Shown here: positions 1 through 7,796 of the stretch, in pieces | How positions within the stretch are numbered: position 1 is the first letter of the stretch | How the letters are laid out: every line of letters starts with the position of its first letter | Source of the DNA: Candidatus Omnitrophota bacterium | GTDB lineage: Bacteria > Omnitrophota > Gorgyraeia > Gygaellales > Profunditerraquicolaceae | Assembly (NCBI GenBank): GCA_026416665.1 | Contig: JAOAET010000015.1 | Location: 4,433 to 68,432, forward strand | DNA: 64,000 nt | Reading direction: 5' to 3' | Program-made: the position numbers and the translations under genes | The notes under the pieces: model-generated | Database searches by the model: none | What the model was told of the DNA's origin: nothing | What the model saw: only the letters and a program-made list of their open reading frames with translations

Positions 1-1037
1 AACCACTTATCCACACCGGGAGCATATGCCTCTAAATCATAGCATTTGCTGGCAGCAAAACTAATATCTTGACTAGATAAAAGCACTACCCGATACGGCA
101 ATCCCAGTGCTTGTAAAATTGCCTCAGCGTTGGCTACTAACTTTTCATGTTCCTCATAGGATGACTCTGGTTTGACGAATTTAACCAACTCAACTTTGTC
201 AAACTGATGCACACGAAGCATACCGCGGGTGTCTTTACCGTAAGAACCTGCCTCACGACGAAAACAAGCAGTGTAAGCAGTTAAATATATAGGTAACTGC
301 TCCTCTTCTAGAATTTCATCAGCATAAATGTTTGTTACTGGCACCTCAGCAGTGGGGATTAAAAATAAATCATCATCTTTTAGCCGATACATATCTTCTT
401 CCATCTTGGGAAGCTGACCTGTACCAGTCATTGTCTTACGATTTACCAGATAAGGCGGAAAAACCTCAGTATAACCGTGGTGTTTGGTATGAAAATCCAG
501 CATAAAATTAAAAAGTGCTCGTTCAAGTTTTGCACCCCAACCTTTAAAAAGTAAAAAATTTGCTCCACTTATTTTTGCAGCGCGCGTAAAATCTACAATA
601 TCTAAATGTTCGGCAATCTCAATATGGTTGCGAGGTGGAAAATCAAACTGCCGTAAACTACCCCAACTACGCACAATCTGTGCTTTGTCTGGGGTCCCAC
701 GAGGAACAGAAGAATGCACCAGGTTTGGAACATATAACAGAGCAGTATTTAGTTTTTCCTCAATAGTCCTTAGTTGACCATCTAACTGGTCGCAACGTGC
801 AGAGATTTCTTTCATTGAAGTAATTTTATCCTTTGGGTCTTTCTTTTCTTTTAACAAACGGGATATTTCGTCATTTGCCTTGTTTTTTTCTGCACGCAAT
901 TGCTCCACTTCTCTTAACAACTTTCTTTTTTCATTATCTAAAGCAATTATCTCATCAATATTCAACTTAGAATTACGGTCAAGTAAAGATTGTTTTACTA
1001 AATCTGCATTCTCACGAATAAACCTTATATCTAACAT
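1..1037 (-). CDS. serS: Seryl-tRNA synthetase. The N-terminus starts at 1037 and the C-terminus runs off the window start.
   Basis: Minus-strand translation from ATG at 1035-1037 gives MLDIRFIRENADLVKQSLLDRN..., with an N-terminal coiled-coil arm. Class II motifs follow: FRREAGSYGKDTRGMLRVHQFDKVE. The ORF is absent from the track because it is truncated at the window edge. Confidence 0.85.
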   Translation of the reverse strand, partial: MLDIRFIRENADLVKQSLLDRNSKLNIDEIIALDNEKRKLLREVEQLRAEKNKANDEISRLLKEKKDPKDKITSMKEISARCDQLDGQLRTIEEKLNTALLYVPNLVHSSVPRGTPDKAQIVRSWGSLRQFDFPPRNHIEIAEHLDIVDFTRAAKISGANFLLFKGWGAKLERALFNFMLDFHTKHHGYTEVFPPYLVNRKTMTGTGQLPKMEEDMYRLKDDDLFLIPTAEVPVTNIYADEILEEEQLPIYLTAYTACFRREAGSYGKDTRGMLRVHQFDKVELVKFVKPESSYEEHEKLVANAEAILQALGLPYRVVLLSSQDISFAASKCYDLEAYAPGVDKW

Positions 1038-1051
1038 CTTTTTGCTCCTTC

Positions 1052-2512
1052 TTAACCTTTGATAACTCCTAAAGGCCGCATACGGCATACGCGCTTAGAG
1101 ATACCCGCATTATGCACGACATCAACTACATCATTTACATCTTTATACGCTTGAGGCGCCTCTTCTACAATTGTGCCGCGACCTGAGGCAAAAACCGCAA
1201 TCCCTTTTGATTCTAAATCCTTAATAAGTTTAGAGGCATCTAAAGAGCGTAGCGCCGCTGAACGAGACTTTACCCTGCCTGCACCATGACAGGTAGAACC
1301 AAAGGTTTCTTCTTCGGCTTGTTTTGTCCCTACTAACAAATAGGAATTTCTTCCCATATCTCCAGGAATAATCACCGGTTGGCCCGTTTGTTGATAACGT
1401 TGAGGTAACGCAGGATGTCCAGGTCCAAAGGCACGCGTGGCACCTTTACGATGAACACAGAGTTTCTTTTTTTTGCCATCAATGGTATATTCCTCTATCT
1501 TTGCAATATTGTGAGCAACATCATAAATCATTTCCATTCCTAATTTCTGCCAAGAAGTGCCGAAGAATTTTTCAAAACACCGACGGGTAAGATACATCAA
1601 ACACTGTCGGTTTGCCCAAGCAAAGTTTGCAGCACAACGCATTGCGGATAAATACGCCTGGCCTTCAGAAGATTTCACTGGTGCACAAGCAAGTTCTCTA
1701 TCTGGAACGTGAATATTATACTTACGCAAACACGCACCCATCTGCTGGACGTATTCGGTGCATATCTCATGGCCCAAACCACGTGAACCAGAGTGAATCA
1801 TAATACAAATCTGTCCTATTTCCAACCCAAAGACATCACAGAGTTTGGCATCATACAATTGGTCAATCACCTGTATCTCTAAGAAGTGATTGCCTGACCC
1901 AAGTGTGCCTGATTGCGCCTTACCTCGCTGATAGGCACGCTCTGATACGGTATCAGGGTCAGCACCAGCAATTGCGCCGTTTTCTTCAGTACACTCTAAA
2001 TCATCCTCACAACCATACCCCTTTTCTACTGCCCAACGTGCACCTTTAACTAAAATCTGACGTTCTTCTTGGGCACTGACTTTAATATCACCTTCAGAGC
2101 CAACTCCCGCAGGAATATCGCAAAATAAGCGATTAGTCAGTTCACGAATTTTGTCTTTAATATCTTCTATTTTTAAGGCGGTCTTTACCAAGCGCACACC
2201 ACAGTTAATATCATAACCCACACCCCCGGGTGAGATAACCCCACCTTCTTCAATATCTGTGGCTGCTACACCACCAATGGGGAAACCGTATCCCCAGTGG
2301 ATATCTGGCATCGCTAACGATGCTCTAACAATTCCAGGTAAAAAAGCAACATTAGCCACTTGCTCTGGTGCGCGGTCCTGCAGAATATCTTTTAATAACT
2401 TTTCACTGGCATAAATAATACCAGGCACGCGCATCCCCGGTTTGTAATTAGTGGGTATACGAAAACGAAAATTATCAATCTTTTCTAACTGTCCTGACCA
2501 AGATTCTGCCAT
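1052..2512 (-). CDS. rtcB: RNA-splicing ligase RtcB, archaeal/Pyrococcus type (3'-phosphate/5'-OH RNA ligase).
   Basis: Motifs seen: GSGNHFLEIQ, HSGSRGLGH, STCHGAGR, and C-terminal MRPLGVIKG. The N-terminus MAESWSGQLEKIDNFRFRIP...MRVPG matches the usual RtcB start. I prefer the internal Met at 2510-2512 over the ORF-track Met at 2575. Confidence 0.9.
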   Translation of the reverse strand: MAESWSGQLEKIDNFRFRIPTNYKPGMRVPGIIYASEKLLKDILQDRAPEQVANVAFLPGIVRASLAMPDIHWGYGFPIGGVAATDIEEGGVISPGGVGYDINCGVRLVKTALKIEDIKDKIRELTNRLFCDIPAGVGSEGDIKVSAQEERQILVKGARWAVEKGYGCEDDLECTEENGAIAGADPDTVSERAYQRGKAQSGTLGSGNHFLEIQVIDQLYDAKLCDVFGLEIGQICIMIHSGSRGLGHEICTEYVQQMGACLRKYNIHVPDRELACAPVKSSEGQAYLSAMRCAANFAWANRQCLMYLTRRCFEKFFGTSWQKLGMEMIYDVAHNIAKIEEYTIDGKKKKLCVHRKGATRAFGPGHPALPQRYQQTGQPVIIPGDMGRNSYLLVGTKQAEEETFGSTCHGAGRVKSRSAALRSLDASKLIKDLESKGIAVFASGRGTIVEEAPQAYKDVNDVVDVVHNAGISKRVCRMRPLGVIKG

Positions 2513-2517
2513 AGGTT

Positions 2518-2838
2518 TTAGGTGAGAAATTTTATGCCAGTCAAGAAAACATTCTCTCCCTGAACACGTTGCCACATTACCCTGCCCAGTGCCTCAATAT
2601 GCTCAGGTGGATTTCCTGGCAAATCAAATTCAAGACGCAGGATTGTCCCAAGGGCTAACTTCCGATTGCACTCAAGACAGAGCCCACCTTGACTAATGTC
2701 CTTGGTTGTGCCGTGTTCAATAGAAGGGATAACCACAGAATATTGCACTTTTGTTGTTATACCGATGCGTGGGAACTGTCGGCGTTCTATCCCAGAACCA
2801 GAAGACGACAGCGGTGGAACTGGTGGTTGTTCATTCAT
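2518..2838 (-). CDS. PilZ-domain protein (putative c-di-GMP receptor).
   Basis: A 106-aa ORF carrying the two PilZ signature motifs: RRQFPR (RxxxR) and DISQGG (DxSxGG). Confidence 0.65.
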   Translation of the reverse strand: MNEQPPVPPLSSSGSGIERRQFPRIGITTKVQYSVVIPSIEHGTTKDISQGGLCLECNRKLALGTILRLEFDLPGNPPEHIEALGRVMWQRVQGENVFLTGIKFLT

Positions 2839-2873
2839 CTACCAGACTCCTTTTTTAGGAAAATTTTTTATAC

Positions 2874-3294
2874 CTATACATCAAAAACTATCTGTGTATA
2901 CCAAAATGAATCTTTCTTTTGGATACACAGATTATGATAGGTTGCTGCTTTTATCTCGTGCTTAAGTTCAAAATTTTCTTCTGGTTCTGCCCATACCACG
3001 GCGCTTAAGATTTTTTTATCTAACCTTTTAATCTTAAAATCTGTAAAAATAACTTTCTCCGTTGCTGAAAGATATAATAGCTCATTTAACCAAGCAACTA
3101 AAAGTTCTTCTGGCGTGTCTGCTTTAACACTTAAAGTAACTTTTCTTTTTTTCTGGTTACCTTCTAAAGGTAAACGCTTGGCTTTTAATTCAAATAGTGC
3201 GCGCCCAGCATTAATAAAAAGACCCTTTAGGTCTTTTGCTTGCAGACGCACACAAAGGTCTGCTGTATGGTCAATAACTTCGTAATATTTCACT
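2874..3294 (-). CDS. Archease (RtcB activator).
   Basis: YEVIDHTADLCVRL matches the archease N-terminal HTAD motif, and the size (about 140 aa) fits. The ORF-track start at 3326 runs into the tRNA-Lys sequence, so I prefer the GTG at 3292-3294, immediately after the tRNA 3' end. Confidence 0.75.
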
Positions 3295-3300
3295 AAAAAT

Positions 3301-3375
3301 GGTGAGCCGCCTTGGAATCGAACCAAGAACCTTGACCTTAAGAGGGTCCTGCTCTACCAATTGAGCTAGCGGCCC
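3301..3375 (-). tRNA. tRNA-Lys (anticodon CTT), with CCA encoded.
   Basis: Reverse complement reads GGGCCGCTAGCTCAATTGGTAGAGCAGGACCCTCTTAAGGTCAAGGTTCTTGGTTCGATTCCAAGGCGGCTCACCA. It folds as a cloverleaf with a 7-bp acceptor stem, a T-arm of CTTGG/CCAAG flanking TTCGATT, and an anticodon loop CTCTTAA. Confidence 0.8.
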
Positions 3376-3438
3376 AAAAATAAATTTATGTTATTTTAGC
3401 GTAAAATCTTTTCTTTGGCAAGATACAACCATCTTCAG

Positions 3439-3512
3439 TGCGCCTGGCAGGAGTCGAACCTGCAACGCCCAGCTCCGAAGGCTGGCGCTCTATCCAGTTG
3501 AGCTACAGGCGC
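3439..3512 (-). tRNA. tRNA-Arg (anticodon TCG).
   Basis: Reverse complement reads GCGCCTGTAGCTCAACTGGATAGAGCGCCAGCCTTCGGAGCTGGGCGTTGCAGGTTCGACTCCTGCCAGGCGCA. The acceptor stem is GCGCCTG/CAGGCGC, the anticodon stem is CCAGC/GCTGG with loop CTTCGGA, and the T-loop is TTCGACT. Confidence 0.75.
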
Positions 3513-3628
3513 AGAAAGGTAATTTTTTACATTCTTGTAATTTGCTTTGTTTCTTACTTCTGACTGTTTTTAAGAATCTAAATAAAAGGATATTTCGGTA
3601 TTTTTTTACCTCTGCCACTTGCAAAACC

Positions 3629-4363
3629 CTAAATAATTTCTGCTTTTGAACCAAGTATTTGTTTTATTTGAAGCAGCTTCTGGTTACTTAAAGGTTTGCA
3701 GTTACATCCTACAGGACAACGCACAGGCGAATTAAGCTGAATTTTATCAGGATTAATCTCGGTAATTACTTTGGCAAGTTTGGAAATGTGTTTGGGTGCA
3801 TCATTTATCCCTTCAACAAGCATTACTTCAAGCCAAATCTTACCTGAATACTCTTTGCGTAACTGTATTAAGCCATTGATAACCTCTTCTATTTTAATAG
3901 AAGGATACGGCTGGTCAATCCTTTCAAAAATATCTTGTTCTACTGCATCAAGAGAAGGCACGATAAGGTCTACCTTAATAATCTCTTTTCTGACTTCTGC
4001 CTTAGACAGAAGAGAAGCATTGGTAATCAAGGCAATAGGTACAGAAGACAACTTTTTAATCTCTTCTATCAATTTACCAATGGCTGAGTTCAGCGTAGGC
4101 TCCCCTGTGCCTGAAAAAGTAATATAAGAAAGTTTCTTTGCCTGTTGTGGATTCTCCTTTAACCAATTGTGTAATTGTTCTAACACTTCTTTGGCTAAAA
4201 CATACTCTTTTTGCTGAATCGTCTTAAAAGTGGTTTTTCCTGCCTGGCAGTAAATGCAATCAAAACTACAGACTTTTGGGGGAGTCAGACTTATTCCTAA
4301 AGAGAGCCCTAACCTTCTTGACTGAATTGGACCGTAAATATAGCTCATAATGAAAACCCCCAC
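3629..4363 (-). CDS. Radical SAM protein of the small COG0731/TYW1-related Fe-S oxidoreductase type.
   Basis: N-terminal YGPIQSRRLGLSLGI followed by CSFDCIYCQ (a CxxxCxxC radical SAM cluster motif), then a glycine-rich SAM region FSGTGEP and C-terminal cysteines CPVGCNC. The true start may be the Met at 4346-4348. Confidence 0.7.
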   Translation of the reverse strand: MGVFIMSYIYGPIQSRRLGLSLGISLTPPKVCSFDCIYCQAGKTTFKTIQQKEYVLAKEVLEQLHNWLKENPQQAKKLSYITFSGTGEPTLNSAIGKLIEEIKKLSSVPIALITNASLLSKAEVRKEIIKVDLIVPSLDAVEQDIFERIDQPYPSIKIEEVINGLIQLRKEYSGKIWLEVMLVEGINDAPKHISKLAKVITEINPDKIQLNSPVRCPVGCNCKPLSNQKLLQIKQILGSKAEII

Positions 4364-4442: not shown

Positions 4443-4727
4443 CTATTTTACCTCAATAACTGAATTCTGAGTTCCAAAGGCATTAGCCACTGTTGGCGCA
4501 TTAGGGTCGTTAAGCCAGCAGCCATCTACAAAAAATTTATACTCATATCTGCCGGGTTTTAAACTGGCCTTAACTGACCAGTTACCTTTGGTATCTTTTT
4601 TGGCAATAAGTTTTGCCACGTCCCAGTTATTAAAACTTCCTGCAACAGCGACCTTTTTTGCCTGAGGTGCAAATAACCTAAAAACCACAGATTTTGACCG
4701 TGAACAGCAACTTGTTTTTGTCGGCAT
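4443..4727 (-). CDS. Standalone CBM48/AMPK-beta-like glycogen-binding domain protein.
   Basis: A 94-aa ORF with VVFRLFAPQAKKVAVAGSFNNWD...GRYEYKFFVDGCWLNDPNAP. This pattern is typical of the AMPK1_CBM/CBM48 carbohydrate-binding fold. Confidence 0.55.
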   Translation of the reverse strand: MPTKTSCCSRSKSVVFRLFAPQAKKVAVAGSFNNWDVAKLIAKKDTKGNWSVKASLKPGRYEYKFFVDGCWLNDPNAPTVANAFGTQNSVIEVK

Positions 4728-6485: not shown

Positions 6486-7796
6486 TTAATCTGCAACAGC
6501 AAACATAAGTTCTGCCTCTGCAACTACATTACCTGCAACCTTGGCAACACCGTGAACTGTTCCAGTGCGCGACTTTATCTTGCCAGCAATAACCTCAAAT
6601 ACGAGTTCATCACCGGGGAGAACAGGTCTGCGGAATTTGGCATTATTAATCATCATAAAAAACGCTAATTTCCCGCGATTTTCTTCTTGCGATAACATCA
6701 TTACTCCACCTACTTGCGCCATTGCTTCCAAAATAAGCACCCCTGGCATTACTGGTCGCTGGGGAAAGTGTCCTCGGAAAAAATACTCATCAGGCCGGAC
6801 GTATTTTACCCCTACTATACGCTTACCCTTTTCCATACTGATTATCTTGTCTACAAACAAGAAGGGGTCACGATGCGGTATAATACGCATAACCTGAGCA
6901 ACATCCATTGAACCATCTTCTCCAATAAACGGCGGTTCTCCAAACTCTACTGCCGGTCGGGCAGGGTGTTGTTTAATTTTTTGGACTAGTTTTAAATTTA
7001 AAGAATGGCCACTACGCAAAGCGATAATATGGGCTTTTAATGGCGAGCCTAAAAGATATAAATCTCCTAATAAATCCATAATCTTGTGGCGCACAAACTC
7101 ATTTTCAAAACGCAGTTTGTTTTTTATAATCCCTTGTTCACCAACCACAAGGGTATTAATGTAATTTGCACCTTTGCCTAATCCCTTAGAACGCAATACC
7201 TCTACCTCTTCAGCTAAACAAAATGTGCGTGCAGAAGCCAATTGTTCTTTGAAAGTCTTTTCTGTTACTACTATCTGCATAAAATCCTTAGCAATATAGG
7301 GATGATTGTAGTCTAAAGTATAAGATATTTTAAGCTCATCAGAAGGTAAAGCAACCAACGATGCACCATTATCTTGAACAAATAATGCCTCAGCTAATGT
7401 GTACCAAAAACGCGGTGCATCCTGCTCAATAATTGTTGCCTCTTCTAATACCTCAACGAATTGTCTACTTGAACCATCTAAACCAGGAACTTCCTCCGCA
7501 TCTATCTGGATAATTAAATTATCTATGCCAAGACCGTTTAAAGCAGCCAGTAGATGCTCTATGGTATAAATCTTAATATCATCTTTTTCTAAACAGCTAT
7601 AGCGTAAACTGCCCTCTTTGGGTTTTAGATTATCTACAGAGACCTTAATAGTAGGACAGCCTGCTAAATCCGTGCGTTCAAAAATAATACCAGAATTAAT
7701 CGGTGCAGGCTTAAAAGATAAATTAACCTTTTCTCCAGAATGAAGACCAACGCCAGAAAGATTAGCTGGCTTTGCTATTGTCCTTTGTTTCTGCAT
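6486..7796 (-). CDS. lpxC-fabZ: Bifunctional UDP-3-O-acyl-GlcNAc deacetylase (LpxC) fused to 3-hydroxyacyl-ACP dehydratase (FabZ).
   Basis: The N-terminal 290 aa or so are LpxC-like (GVGLHSGEKVNLSFKPAP, HLLAAL). The C-terminal 140 aa or so are a FabZ hotdog domain (FFRGHFPQRPVMPGVLILEAMAQ). The ORF is continuous at 436 aa. Confidence 0.85.
   Translation of the reverse strand: MQKQRTIAKPANLSGVGLHSGEKVNLSFKPAPINSGIIFERTDLAGCPTIKVSVDNLKPKEGSLRYSCLEKDDIKIYTIEHLLAALNGLGIDNLIIQIDAEEVPGLDGSSRQFVEVLEEATIIEQDAPRFWYTLAEALFVQDNGASLVALPSDELKISYTLDYNHPYIAKDFMQIVVTEKTFKEQLASARTFCLAEEVEVLRSKGLGKGANYINTLVVGEQGIIKNKLRFENEFVRHKIMDLLGDLYLLGSPLKAHIIALRSGHSLNLKLVQKIKQHPARPAVEFGEPPFIGEDGSMDVAQVMRIIPHRDPFLFVDKIISMEKGKRIVGVKYVRPDEYFFRGHFPQRPVMPGVLILEAMAQVGGVMMLSQEENRGKLAFFMMINNAKFRRPVLPGDELVFEVIAGKIKSRTGTVHGVAKVAGNVVAEAELMFAVAD

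Follow-up and report, generated by a model that had tools for sequence, protein, structure and literature searches.

Does a PilZ-domain gene lodged between the genes for the RNA ligase RtcB and its activator archease place RNA ligation under the control of cyclic di-GMP (c-di-GMP), or does its position have another origin? The question is raised by a 64,000-nucleotide (nt) stretch of a Candidatus Omnitrophota genome (GenBank JAOAET010000015.1, positions 4,433 to 68,432; hereafter the window), for which a preliminary description had proposed a c-di-GMP-linked RNA repair module. As stated there, the three genes lie on the same (minus) strand with PilZ in the middle, and all are unambiguous Pfam matches. 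Comparison with related loci places the insertion of PilZ precisely where archease and rtcB overlap, in an operon that already existed. The features of this operon in the window are as follows (aa, amino acids; SD, Shine-Dalgarno sequence).

1037..1, minus strand: seryl-tRNA synthetase gene (SerRS, serS), first 345 codons, cut by the window start; ATG with its own SD, AAGGAG
2512..1052, minus strand: RtcB RNA ligase, 486 aa, intein-free (full-length match to Pfam PF01139, 592 bits)
2838..2518, minus strand: stand-alone PilZ protein, 106 aa (PF07238, 49.7 bits against a gathering threshold of 22.5, E = 5e-13)
2881..2839, minus strand: archease-PilZ spacer, with the old ATG (2881..2879) and a new SD, GGAG (2850..2847)
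3293..2874, minus strand: archease, 139 aa, GTG start, full length (PF01951, 120 bits; NCBIfam PRK00407 aligns over 1-139 of 139)
3375..3300, minus strand: tRNA-Lys(CTT), CCA end encoded (ARAGORN, Rfam)
3421..3393, minus strand: sigma-70-like promoter, TTGCCA-17-TAAAAT, between tRNA-Arg and tRNA-Lys (10/12 consensus matches)
3512..3438, minus strand: tRNA-Arg(TCG) (ARAGORN; Rfam tRNA, 67.9 bits)

The spacing within this run agrees with that first reported. Between the PilZ stop and the rtcB ATG there are exactly 5 nt, the archease GTG lies 6 nt past the 3′ end of tRNA-Lys (described as abutting it) and tRNA-Arg lies 62 nt upstream of tRNA-Lys (given as about 60 bp); the gap between the rtcB stop and the serS ATG is 14 nt. 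The GTG start of archease is also used in public annotation P0071, while another public annotation (P0191) begins RtcB at Met27 (460 aa). Orthologues conserve the 26 residues before Met27, in favour of the ATG at 2512 and thus of the 5-nt gap, and the RtcB N-terminus aligns from residue 1 in most relatives. Identical PilZ, archease and RtcB proteins are on record from a 102-kb contig in a Candidatus Omnitrophica metagenome-assembled genome (MAG).

Related loci were gathered by exact-protein look-ups, scans of species-representative genomes and of metagenomes, and archease- or RtcB-anchored look-ups, and were sorted by tblastn; presence or absence was judged at the locus only. All members of the PilZ family lie within one block: LpxD, LpxC/FabZ, LpxA, LpxI, CBM48, radical SAM, tRNA-Arg, tRNA-Lys, a variable part, SerRS, a membrane open reading frame (ORF) of ~240 aa and tRNA-Ser. 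The variable part is archease-PilZ-RtcB, then SerRS, in the window and ~21 further distinct loci, archease-PilZ-PilZ′-RtcB in L028 and L054, and PilZ alone in L004, L026, L030, L033, L044, L052 and L053/L055. The form without PilZ, archease-RtcB, occurs in the same block in L087, L088 and L089 and in a more distant Omnitrophota MAG (L084); archease and rtcB adjoin each other directly in these loci and are parted by PilZ in the window and ~24 related loci. Whether PilZ recurs between the two genes in relatives had been left as a check by the preliminary description, and it does so in ~24 distinct relatives; because of this recurrence the arrangement is inherited, not accidental. Wherever a related locus extends far enough, SerRS comes after rtcB or, if rtcB has been deleted, after PilZ (rtcB-to-serS gap 8-26 nt in 10/15 loci).

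The junction itself bears on how the insertion came about. In PilZ-less L087 and L089, archease ends ...GAGGTGATTTTTGATGTCTGA, in which the embedded ATG-TCT-GAG is the rtcB start (MSE) and GAGGTGAT, lying inside the archease 3′ end, is its SD. Loci of both kinds share one and the same junction, GATGTCTGA, from which PilZ (MSE) starts where it is present and RtcB (MSE) where it is not. In PilZ-bearing loci ATG-TCT-GAR now begins PilZ (MSE or MSD), and the downstream rtcB retains a MSE/MSD-xW-xG start of its own. The archease stop overlaps the PilZ ATG by 8 nt (GATGTCTGA) in 22/24 related loci, the exceptions being the window and its closest relative, L010, in which the overlap has been lost and a 35- or 54-nt spacer carries a new SD; in the window the ancestral overlapping ATG (2881..2879) survives as a dead 8-codon ORF.

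In the proposed sequence of events, insertion of PilZ in one Omnitrophota lineage would have captured both the SD of rtcB (GAGGTGAT) and its ATG-TCT-GAR start. The duplex formed with the anti-SD in PilZ-bearing loci has an energy of -9.9 kcal/mol at PilZ, -8.0 at SerRS and only -1.2 at RtcB, as against -6.9 to -10.8 kcal/mol for rtcB in PilZ-less loci; rtcB of the window, at +2.1, has no SD. Since PilZ took over the SD and start, rtcB is left without an SD a short distance past the PilZ stop (5-15 nt in 18/21 loci), so that its translation most likely depends on re-initiation after PilZ, a coupling by which archease, PilZ and RtcB would be made together.

The arrangement probably traces to a single insertion event, in which case its recurrence is not independent evidence of function, and the conserved position of PilZ largely reflects one ancestral insertion in a generally syntenic block. 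In the trees that bear on whether PilZ was gained once or also lost, monophyly of the PilZ-bearing loci is recovered in 77/200 and 74/300 bootstraps, deep branching being weakly supported and the position of the PilZ-less clade likewise. The PilZ-bearing form looks like a minority among close relatives: at least 120 RtcB clusters are ≥75% identical to RtcB of the window, and ~6 of them are apparently tied to contigs with PilZ matches, among the matches listed. All three long contigs reached through RtcB, i.e. with no selection for PilZ (L087, L088, L089), have the same block without it.

Transcription appears to begin at the tRNA head of the operon. The promoter-like site at 3421..3393 matches a motif, TTGCMAAA...TTTTAAGNTAAAAT, that 13 related loci carry 45-72 nt before tRNA-Lys, including L007 and L013, where insertions part tRNA-Arg from tRNA-Lys, and no terminator-like site was found on the minus strand from 3512 to 1. 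In relatives, whether or not they have PilZ, tRNA-Lys immediately precedes archease; tRNA-Arg is also syntenic, though its spacer to tRNA-Lys often holds inserted genes. The conserved promoter just upstream of tRNA-Lys gives the run the appearance of one housekeeping operon, the transcript of which, to judge from the sequence, likely starts at 3421..3393 with tRNA-Lys as first gene and runs into the essential serS. A tRNA head and an essential gene in one transcript argue for steady, not stress-induced, expression. Separate promoters for rtcB and archease, which the preliminary description named as evidence that would count against it, left no sign: rtcB is without its own SD and the conserved promoter lies upstream of tRNA-Lys. 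Among known RNA elements (Rfam), tRNAs and no riboswitch turned up in the window.

At the tRNA-archease boundary, archease begins 6-22 nt past the tRNA-Lys 3′ end in the window, L001, L010, L012, L013, L015, L039, L046, L062 and L087; almost all PilZ-bearing loci use GTG or TTG as its start codon, and it lacks an SD. Once the tRNA 3′ end has been processed, almost no leader would be left on the archease mRNA, and archease translation may therefore depend on tRNA maturation; as the tight adjacency is also seen in PilZ-less L087, it is probably older than the PilZ insertion. The tRNA-Arg/tRNA-Lys and tRNA-Lys/archease spacers are insertion hot spots (L007, L011, L013, L030, L032, L087, L089), occupied by a miscellany of membrane proteins, methyltransferases, a second radical SAM protein and DsbA, and the run from archease to serS is never interrupted by such unrelated insertions. 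In L007 (3291..5336) HAMP-HD-GYP and M50 peptidase genes lie between tRNA-Arg and tRNA-Lys, just upstream of the promoter; c-di-GMP genes do not recur in the tRNA spacers, L007 being the sole relative with one.

The PilZ protein carries R20-QFP-R24 (within RRQFPR) and D47-I-S49-QG-G52 (DISQGG), with R20, R24, D47, S49 and G52 invariant in an alignment of 30/30 family members. The RxxxR and DxSxGG motifs had been described as intact, and both are indeed present with key residues invariant, although the second is properly D/NxSxxG, which is looked for about 20-30 residues past RxxxR; the Pfam profile threshold, failure at which had been named as contrary evidence, is exceeded. The match covers Pfam positions 1-86 of 102, the C-terminal helix being absent. 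An AlphaFold (AF2) model (mean predicted local distance difference test score, pLDDT, 72.9) is confident for the strands at 44-104 and not for residues 1-35, a disordered N-terminal arm, and suggests a flexible arm with RxxxR followed by a minimal beta-barrel with DxSxxG, which may be the six-stranded barrel of PilZ domains. The best Foldseek matches of this model in the PDB are c-di-GMP-bound PilZ domains (BcsA 4p00, PP4397 2gjg, Alg44 4rt0, MotI 5vx6), each with probability ~1.0 but weak E-values (0.02-0.3) and TM-scores of 0.43-0.50; the PilZ profile has no sequence relatives in the PDB. From its motifs, PilZ is predicted to bind c-di-GMP as a minimal canonical receptor.

A search of 5.8 billion proteins returned 70 relatives of this PilZ protein, all of 96-120 aa and mostly 51-81% identical, and each of those with a source name is labelled Omnitrophota or Omnitrophica. 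On clustering at 50% identity the family is essentially one representative, the next matches outside it being common PilZ proteins, stand-alone or double. One stretch specific to the family, FDLPGDxPEHIEALG..WQR...TGIKFL, is nearly invariant. No fusion of PilZ to RtcB, archease or SerRS was found among the best 120 archease matches, the best 120 RtcB matches and the nearest PilZ representatives, the long matches among the last being multi-PilZ, Hsp70-like or TonB_C fusions. More distant relatives (29-48% identity) have no rtcB or archease in the flanks taken (5-6 kb where the contig allows), and their annotated neighbours are unrelated. A tandem PilZ duplicate lies between archease and rtcB in L028 (8001..8610) and L054, and also in P0063 and P0069 on one 3.3-kb contig; RxxxR and DxSxxG are still present in the second copy, with the family surface altered (ALGRVxWQR to VVGRAVWVKE).

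In a tree of SerRS and the membrane ORF, PilZ-only loci fall into four clades, each with 200/200 bootstraps, three of which also contain archease-PilZ-rtcB loci; monophyly of all PilZ-only loci is recovered in 0/200. This distribution, in supported clades mixed with intact loci, indicates that archease and rtcB were lost together repeatedly with PilZ spared, at least three times and probably four. Traces of the deletions remain. In L030 an archease mini-ORF upstream of PilZ joins an N-terminal ..FIEHTAD.. to a C-terminal ..AEAIFDV*, and downstream of the intact PilZ gene lie the rtcB fragments ..ADEKLIKDIE.. and ..SKRVCRMRPLGVIKK*; in the other PilZ-only loci a 3′ remnant of archease is retained with the SD. 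Inside a clade of PilZ-only loci the ratio of nonsynonymous to synonymous substitution rates (dN/dS) of PilZ is 0.08-0.13 at dS 0.28-0.39, i.e. PilZ is under purifying selection. The family surface (FDLPGDxPEHIEALG..WQR, TGIKFL) is as well conserved at loci that lack archease and rtcB as at loci that have them, and no robust signal was found for PilZ residues conserved solely where the pair is present. Co-occurrence at the locus is thus not that of an obligate RtcB or archease partner, since archease-rtcB without PilZ and PilZ without the pair both occur in the same syntenic block. Relatives of both kinds suggest that PilZ is probably not a dedicated part of the RNA-repair machinery; its link to RNA repair is not obligate, and the evidence points to co-expression without dependence.

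With moderate confidence we favour a reading in which PilZ is a trans-acting general c-di-GMP adaptor that was wired into the expression of a housekeeping operon, and hold it likelier than a switch of RNA ligation. The operon (promoter, tRNA-Lys(CTT), archease, PilZ, RtcB, SerRS, with the membrane ORF and tRNA-Ser expected after SerRS, beyond the window edge, as in relatives) would be transcribed constitutively and so supply PilZ steadily. From its single-domain build, shared with PilZ proteins already known as adaptors in trans (PMC11250160), PilZ is expected to act by binding a partner protein; we infer this adaptor mode, and that the main partner is encoded elsewhere, any effect on RNA ligation being accessory. 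Co-expression does not make PilZ a dedicated RtcB or archease factor. Several points weigh against this reading. Tight translational coupling over long divergence often marks physical partners, the tandem copy in L028 and L054 stayed between archease and rtcB, and no partner protein of PilZ was identified. As presence and absence were read at the locus, rtcB or archease copies elsewhere would make the retention of PilZ say little, and since PilZ-only loci were found through PilZ searches, loci that had lost all three genes would be missed. The evidence for c-di-GMP binding consists of the motifs, and 44% of long ORFs in the window also lack an SD at the first ATG; by this crude and noisy control a missing rtcB SD is not in itself exceptional, the informative point being the shift between orthologous rtcB genes.

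The idea first put forward, that PilZ, once loaded with c-di-GMP, turns RNA ligation (tRNA repair) on or off by binding RtcB or archease, appears doubtful. It draws on the position of PilZ exactly between ligase and activator, translationally coupled to both in ~24 loci, on the tandem duplicate that stayed within the pair, on the HAMP-HD-GYP gene inserted just upstream of tRNA-Lys in L007, and on nucleotide chemistry, RtcB being a GTP-dependent enzyme and GTP the precursor of c-di-GMP. It also has a parallel in single-domain PilZ adaptors that control enzymes, one of them acting on translation factors (PMC11250160). Against it stand the loci with archease-rtcB and no PilZ, the three or more (probably four) losses of the pair with PilZ kept, under purifying selection and with an unchanged conserved surface, and the lack of fusions in the matches surveyed above; with the whole block from LpxD to tRNA-Ser syntenic, conserved position alone is weak evidence. 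A literature search found no link between RtcB or archease and PilZ or c-di-GMP and, in agreement with the preliminary description, no report of PilZ inside an rtcB-archease pair; a large PilZ survey makes no mention of tRNA, RNA ligase or Omnitrophica. That PilZ was recruited as a c-di-GMP-dependent RtcB-archease switch, with the PilZ-only lineages reflecting a second partner, is unlikely. Action of PilZ on its constant neighbours (SerRS, the membrane ORF or the tRNA transcript), which would link c-di-GMP to serylation or translation, is quite improbable: SerRS does come after PilZ, directly or past rtcB, in every PilZ-bearing locus long enough to show it, at as little as 21-35 nt in PilZ-only loci, but blocks that lack PilZ contain SerRS and the membrane ORF as well, SerRS starts from an SD of its own with no coupling to PilZ, the adjacency is accounted for by insertion followed by rtcB deletion, and such a link is without precedent. 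We consider it very improbable that the PilZ ORF is a degenerate, non-signalling relic that does not bind c-di-GMP or is kept just to let rtcB be translated. The dependence of SD-less rtcB on PilZ translation would fit, as would a minimal protein without the C-terminal helix (Pfam 1-86 of 102) and the lack of a diguanylate cyclase motif in the 64-kb window; however, all c-di-GMP-contacting motif residues are invariant in 30 sequences, dN/dS is ~0.1 even where rtcB is gone and nothing is left to couple to, and an HD-GYP phosphodiesterase gene in the window shows that the organism uses c-di-GMP. The adaptor reading remains the one we prefer, and c-di-GMP control of RNA ligation, though conceivable, is unsupported.

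The module originally proposed also took in genes further from the operon, listed here with other features of the block.

4363..3629, minus strand: radical SAM protein, 244 aa (PF04055, 57.1 bits against 29.5)
4443..4727: stand-alone CBM48/AMPK-beta-like glycogen-binding module, 94 aa, between LpxI and the radical SAM gene
6486..7796: LpxC-FabZ fusion, 436 aa
14405..11952, minus strand: CHASE2-HD-GYP protein (HD_5 141 bits, CHASE2 113.7 bits, motif HHERWDGKGYP)

The radical SAM protein is a genuine superfamily member, with a CxxxCxxC motif (C-SFD-C-IY-C) near its N-terminus. Its labelling as COG0731/TYW1-related was not confirmed: it scores 43.9 bits with TYW1 (TIGR03972) against a cut-off of 317.95 and reaches no NCBIfam family cut-off, better but still sub-threshold matches being to tungsten-cofactor maturase and MoaA models, and it has no sequence relative in the PDB. 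The gene keeps its place upstream of tRNA-Arg whether a locus has archease, rtcB or PilZ or lacks them, and it belongs to the wider conserved gene order and not to the RNA-ligase pair. The HD-GYP gene was correctly placed at about 9 kb (~9.1 kb from PilZ), and its product has the HD_5/HD domain with the HHExxDGxGYP motif that defines the group; between it and the operon lie eight unrelated genes (CBM48, LpxI, LpxA, LpxC/FabZ, LpxD, OmpH, BamA). As for the c-di-GMP-linked RNA repair module as a whole, the arrangement is conserved and none of the findings named beforehand as contrary (PilZ not conserved in relatives, failing its profile threshold, or separated by independent promoters) was obtained, but it is not supported as a functional unit. 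No second PilZ gene and no GGDEF (diguanylate cyclase) motif were found in the window, in which ten further large ORFs are housekeeping genes.

Several other features of the block vary, or are kept, among relatives. An rtcB intein is common in orthologues (L001, L007, L011, L013, L035, L039; proteins of ~990-1000 aa) and absent in the window, L010, L012, L014, L015 and L017, a patchy distribution within one clade. The LpxC-FabZ fusion is kept in all relatives examined and the stand-alone CBM48 module is conserved throughout the clade. The membrane protein of ~240 aa, past the window start, is multi-pass with no Pfam match (L001 10575..11306; L010 9052..9800); its ORF overlaps the serS stop by ~22 nt in several relatives examined (L001, L004, L007), and tRNA-Ser(TGA) comes next. 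L017 (JBLMZF010000007.1), labelled a Deltaproteobacteria MAG, has the full Omnitrophota block from LpxI to tRNA-Ser, including archease-PilZ-RtcB; the contig has probably been placed in the wrong bin or given a wrong label.

Should PilZ in fact contact RtcB or archease, RNA repair would join the outputs of c-di-GMP, and bacterial RtcB would have a regulator of a new kind; a PilZ switch on the pair would connect c-di-GMP signalling with RNA ligation for the first time, with a second messenger gating the repair or splicing of tRNA and other RNAs. Apart from this, the locus is a natural experiment in which an inserted gene took over a ribosome-binding site, so that translation of an RNA ligase probably came to depend on it, and in which repeated later two-sided deletions removed the ligase pair and spared the inserted gene. 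A compact PilZ family of ~100 aa with an invariant family-specific surface is also a tractable bait for a c-di-GMP target in an uncultivated phylum.

Among known systems, c-di-GMP-linked RNA processing is represented by the E. coli DosC/DosP complex with PNPase, a precedent for c-di-GMP touching RNA metabolism in which receptor, enzyme and logic all differ and there is no PilZ. Closer in build are the single-domain PilZ adaptors, such as MapZ, which binds CheR1 in Pseudomonas. N5MapZ of Xanthomonas citri is another, and binds the methyltransferase HemK, which acts on translation factors (PMC11250160). PilZ of the window resembles them in its size of ~100 aa, its reduction to a barrel and N-terminal RxxxR arm and its canonical motifs, and differs in that its family is confined to one Omnitrophota clade and sits inside an RNA-ligase operon. 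With the E. coli rtcBA RNA-repair operon, controlled by the sigma-54 activator RtcR (Tanaka and Shuman 2011, cited in PMC4604427), the window shares an RtcB-family ligase; unlike in E. coli, archease is present, neither rtcA nor rtcR lies beside rtcB (its neighbours being PilZ and archease upstream and serS downstream), and the transcript shared with a tRNA and serS points to constitutive, not stress-induced, expression. The nearest counterpart is the well-described archease-RtcB ‘tRNA splicing operon’ of bacteria and archaea (Desai et al. 2014, PMC3973293; Desai et al. 2015, PMC4604427), of which the locus is a new clade-specific variant. As in that operon, ligase and activator are full-length, co-oriented and in one operon, and the classical form is seen in the PilZ-less Omnitrophota relatives, where archease overlaps rtcB by 8 nt; in the window, by contrast, PilZ occupies the junction and holds the former ribosome-binding site of rtcB, and the operon opens with tRNA-Lys and runs on into the essential serS.

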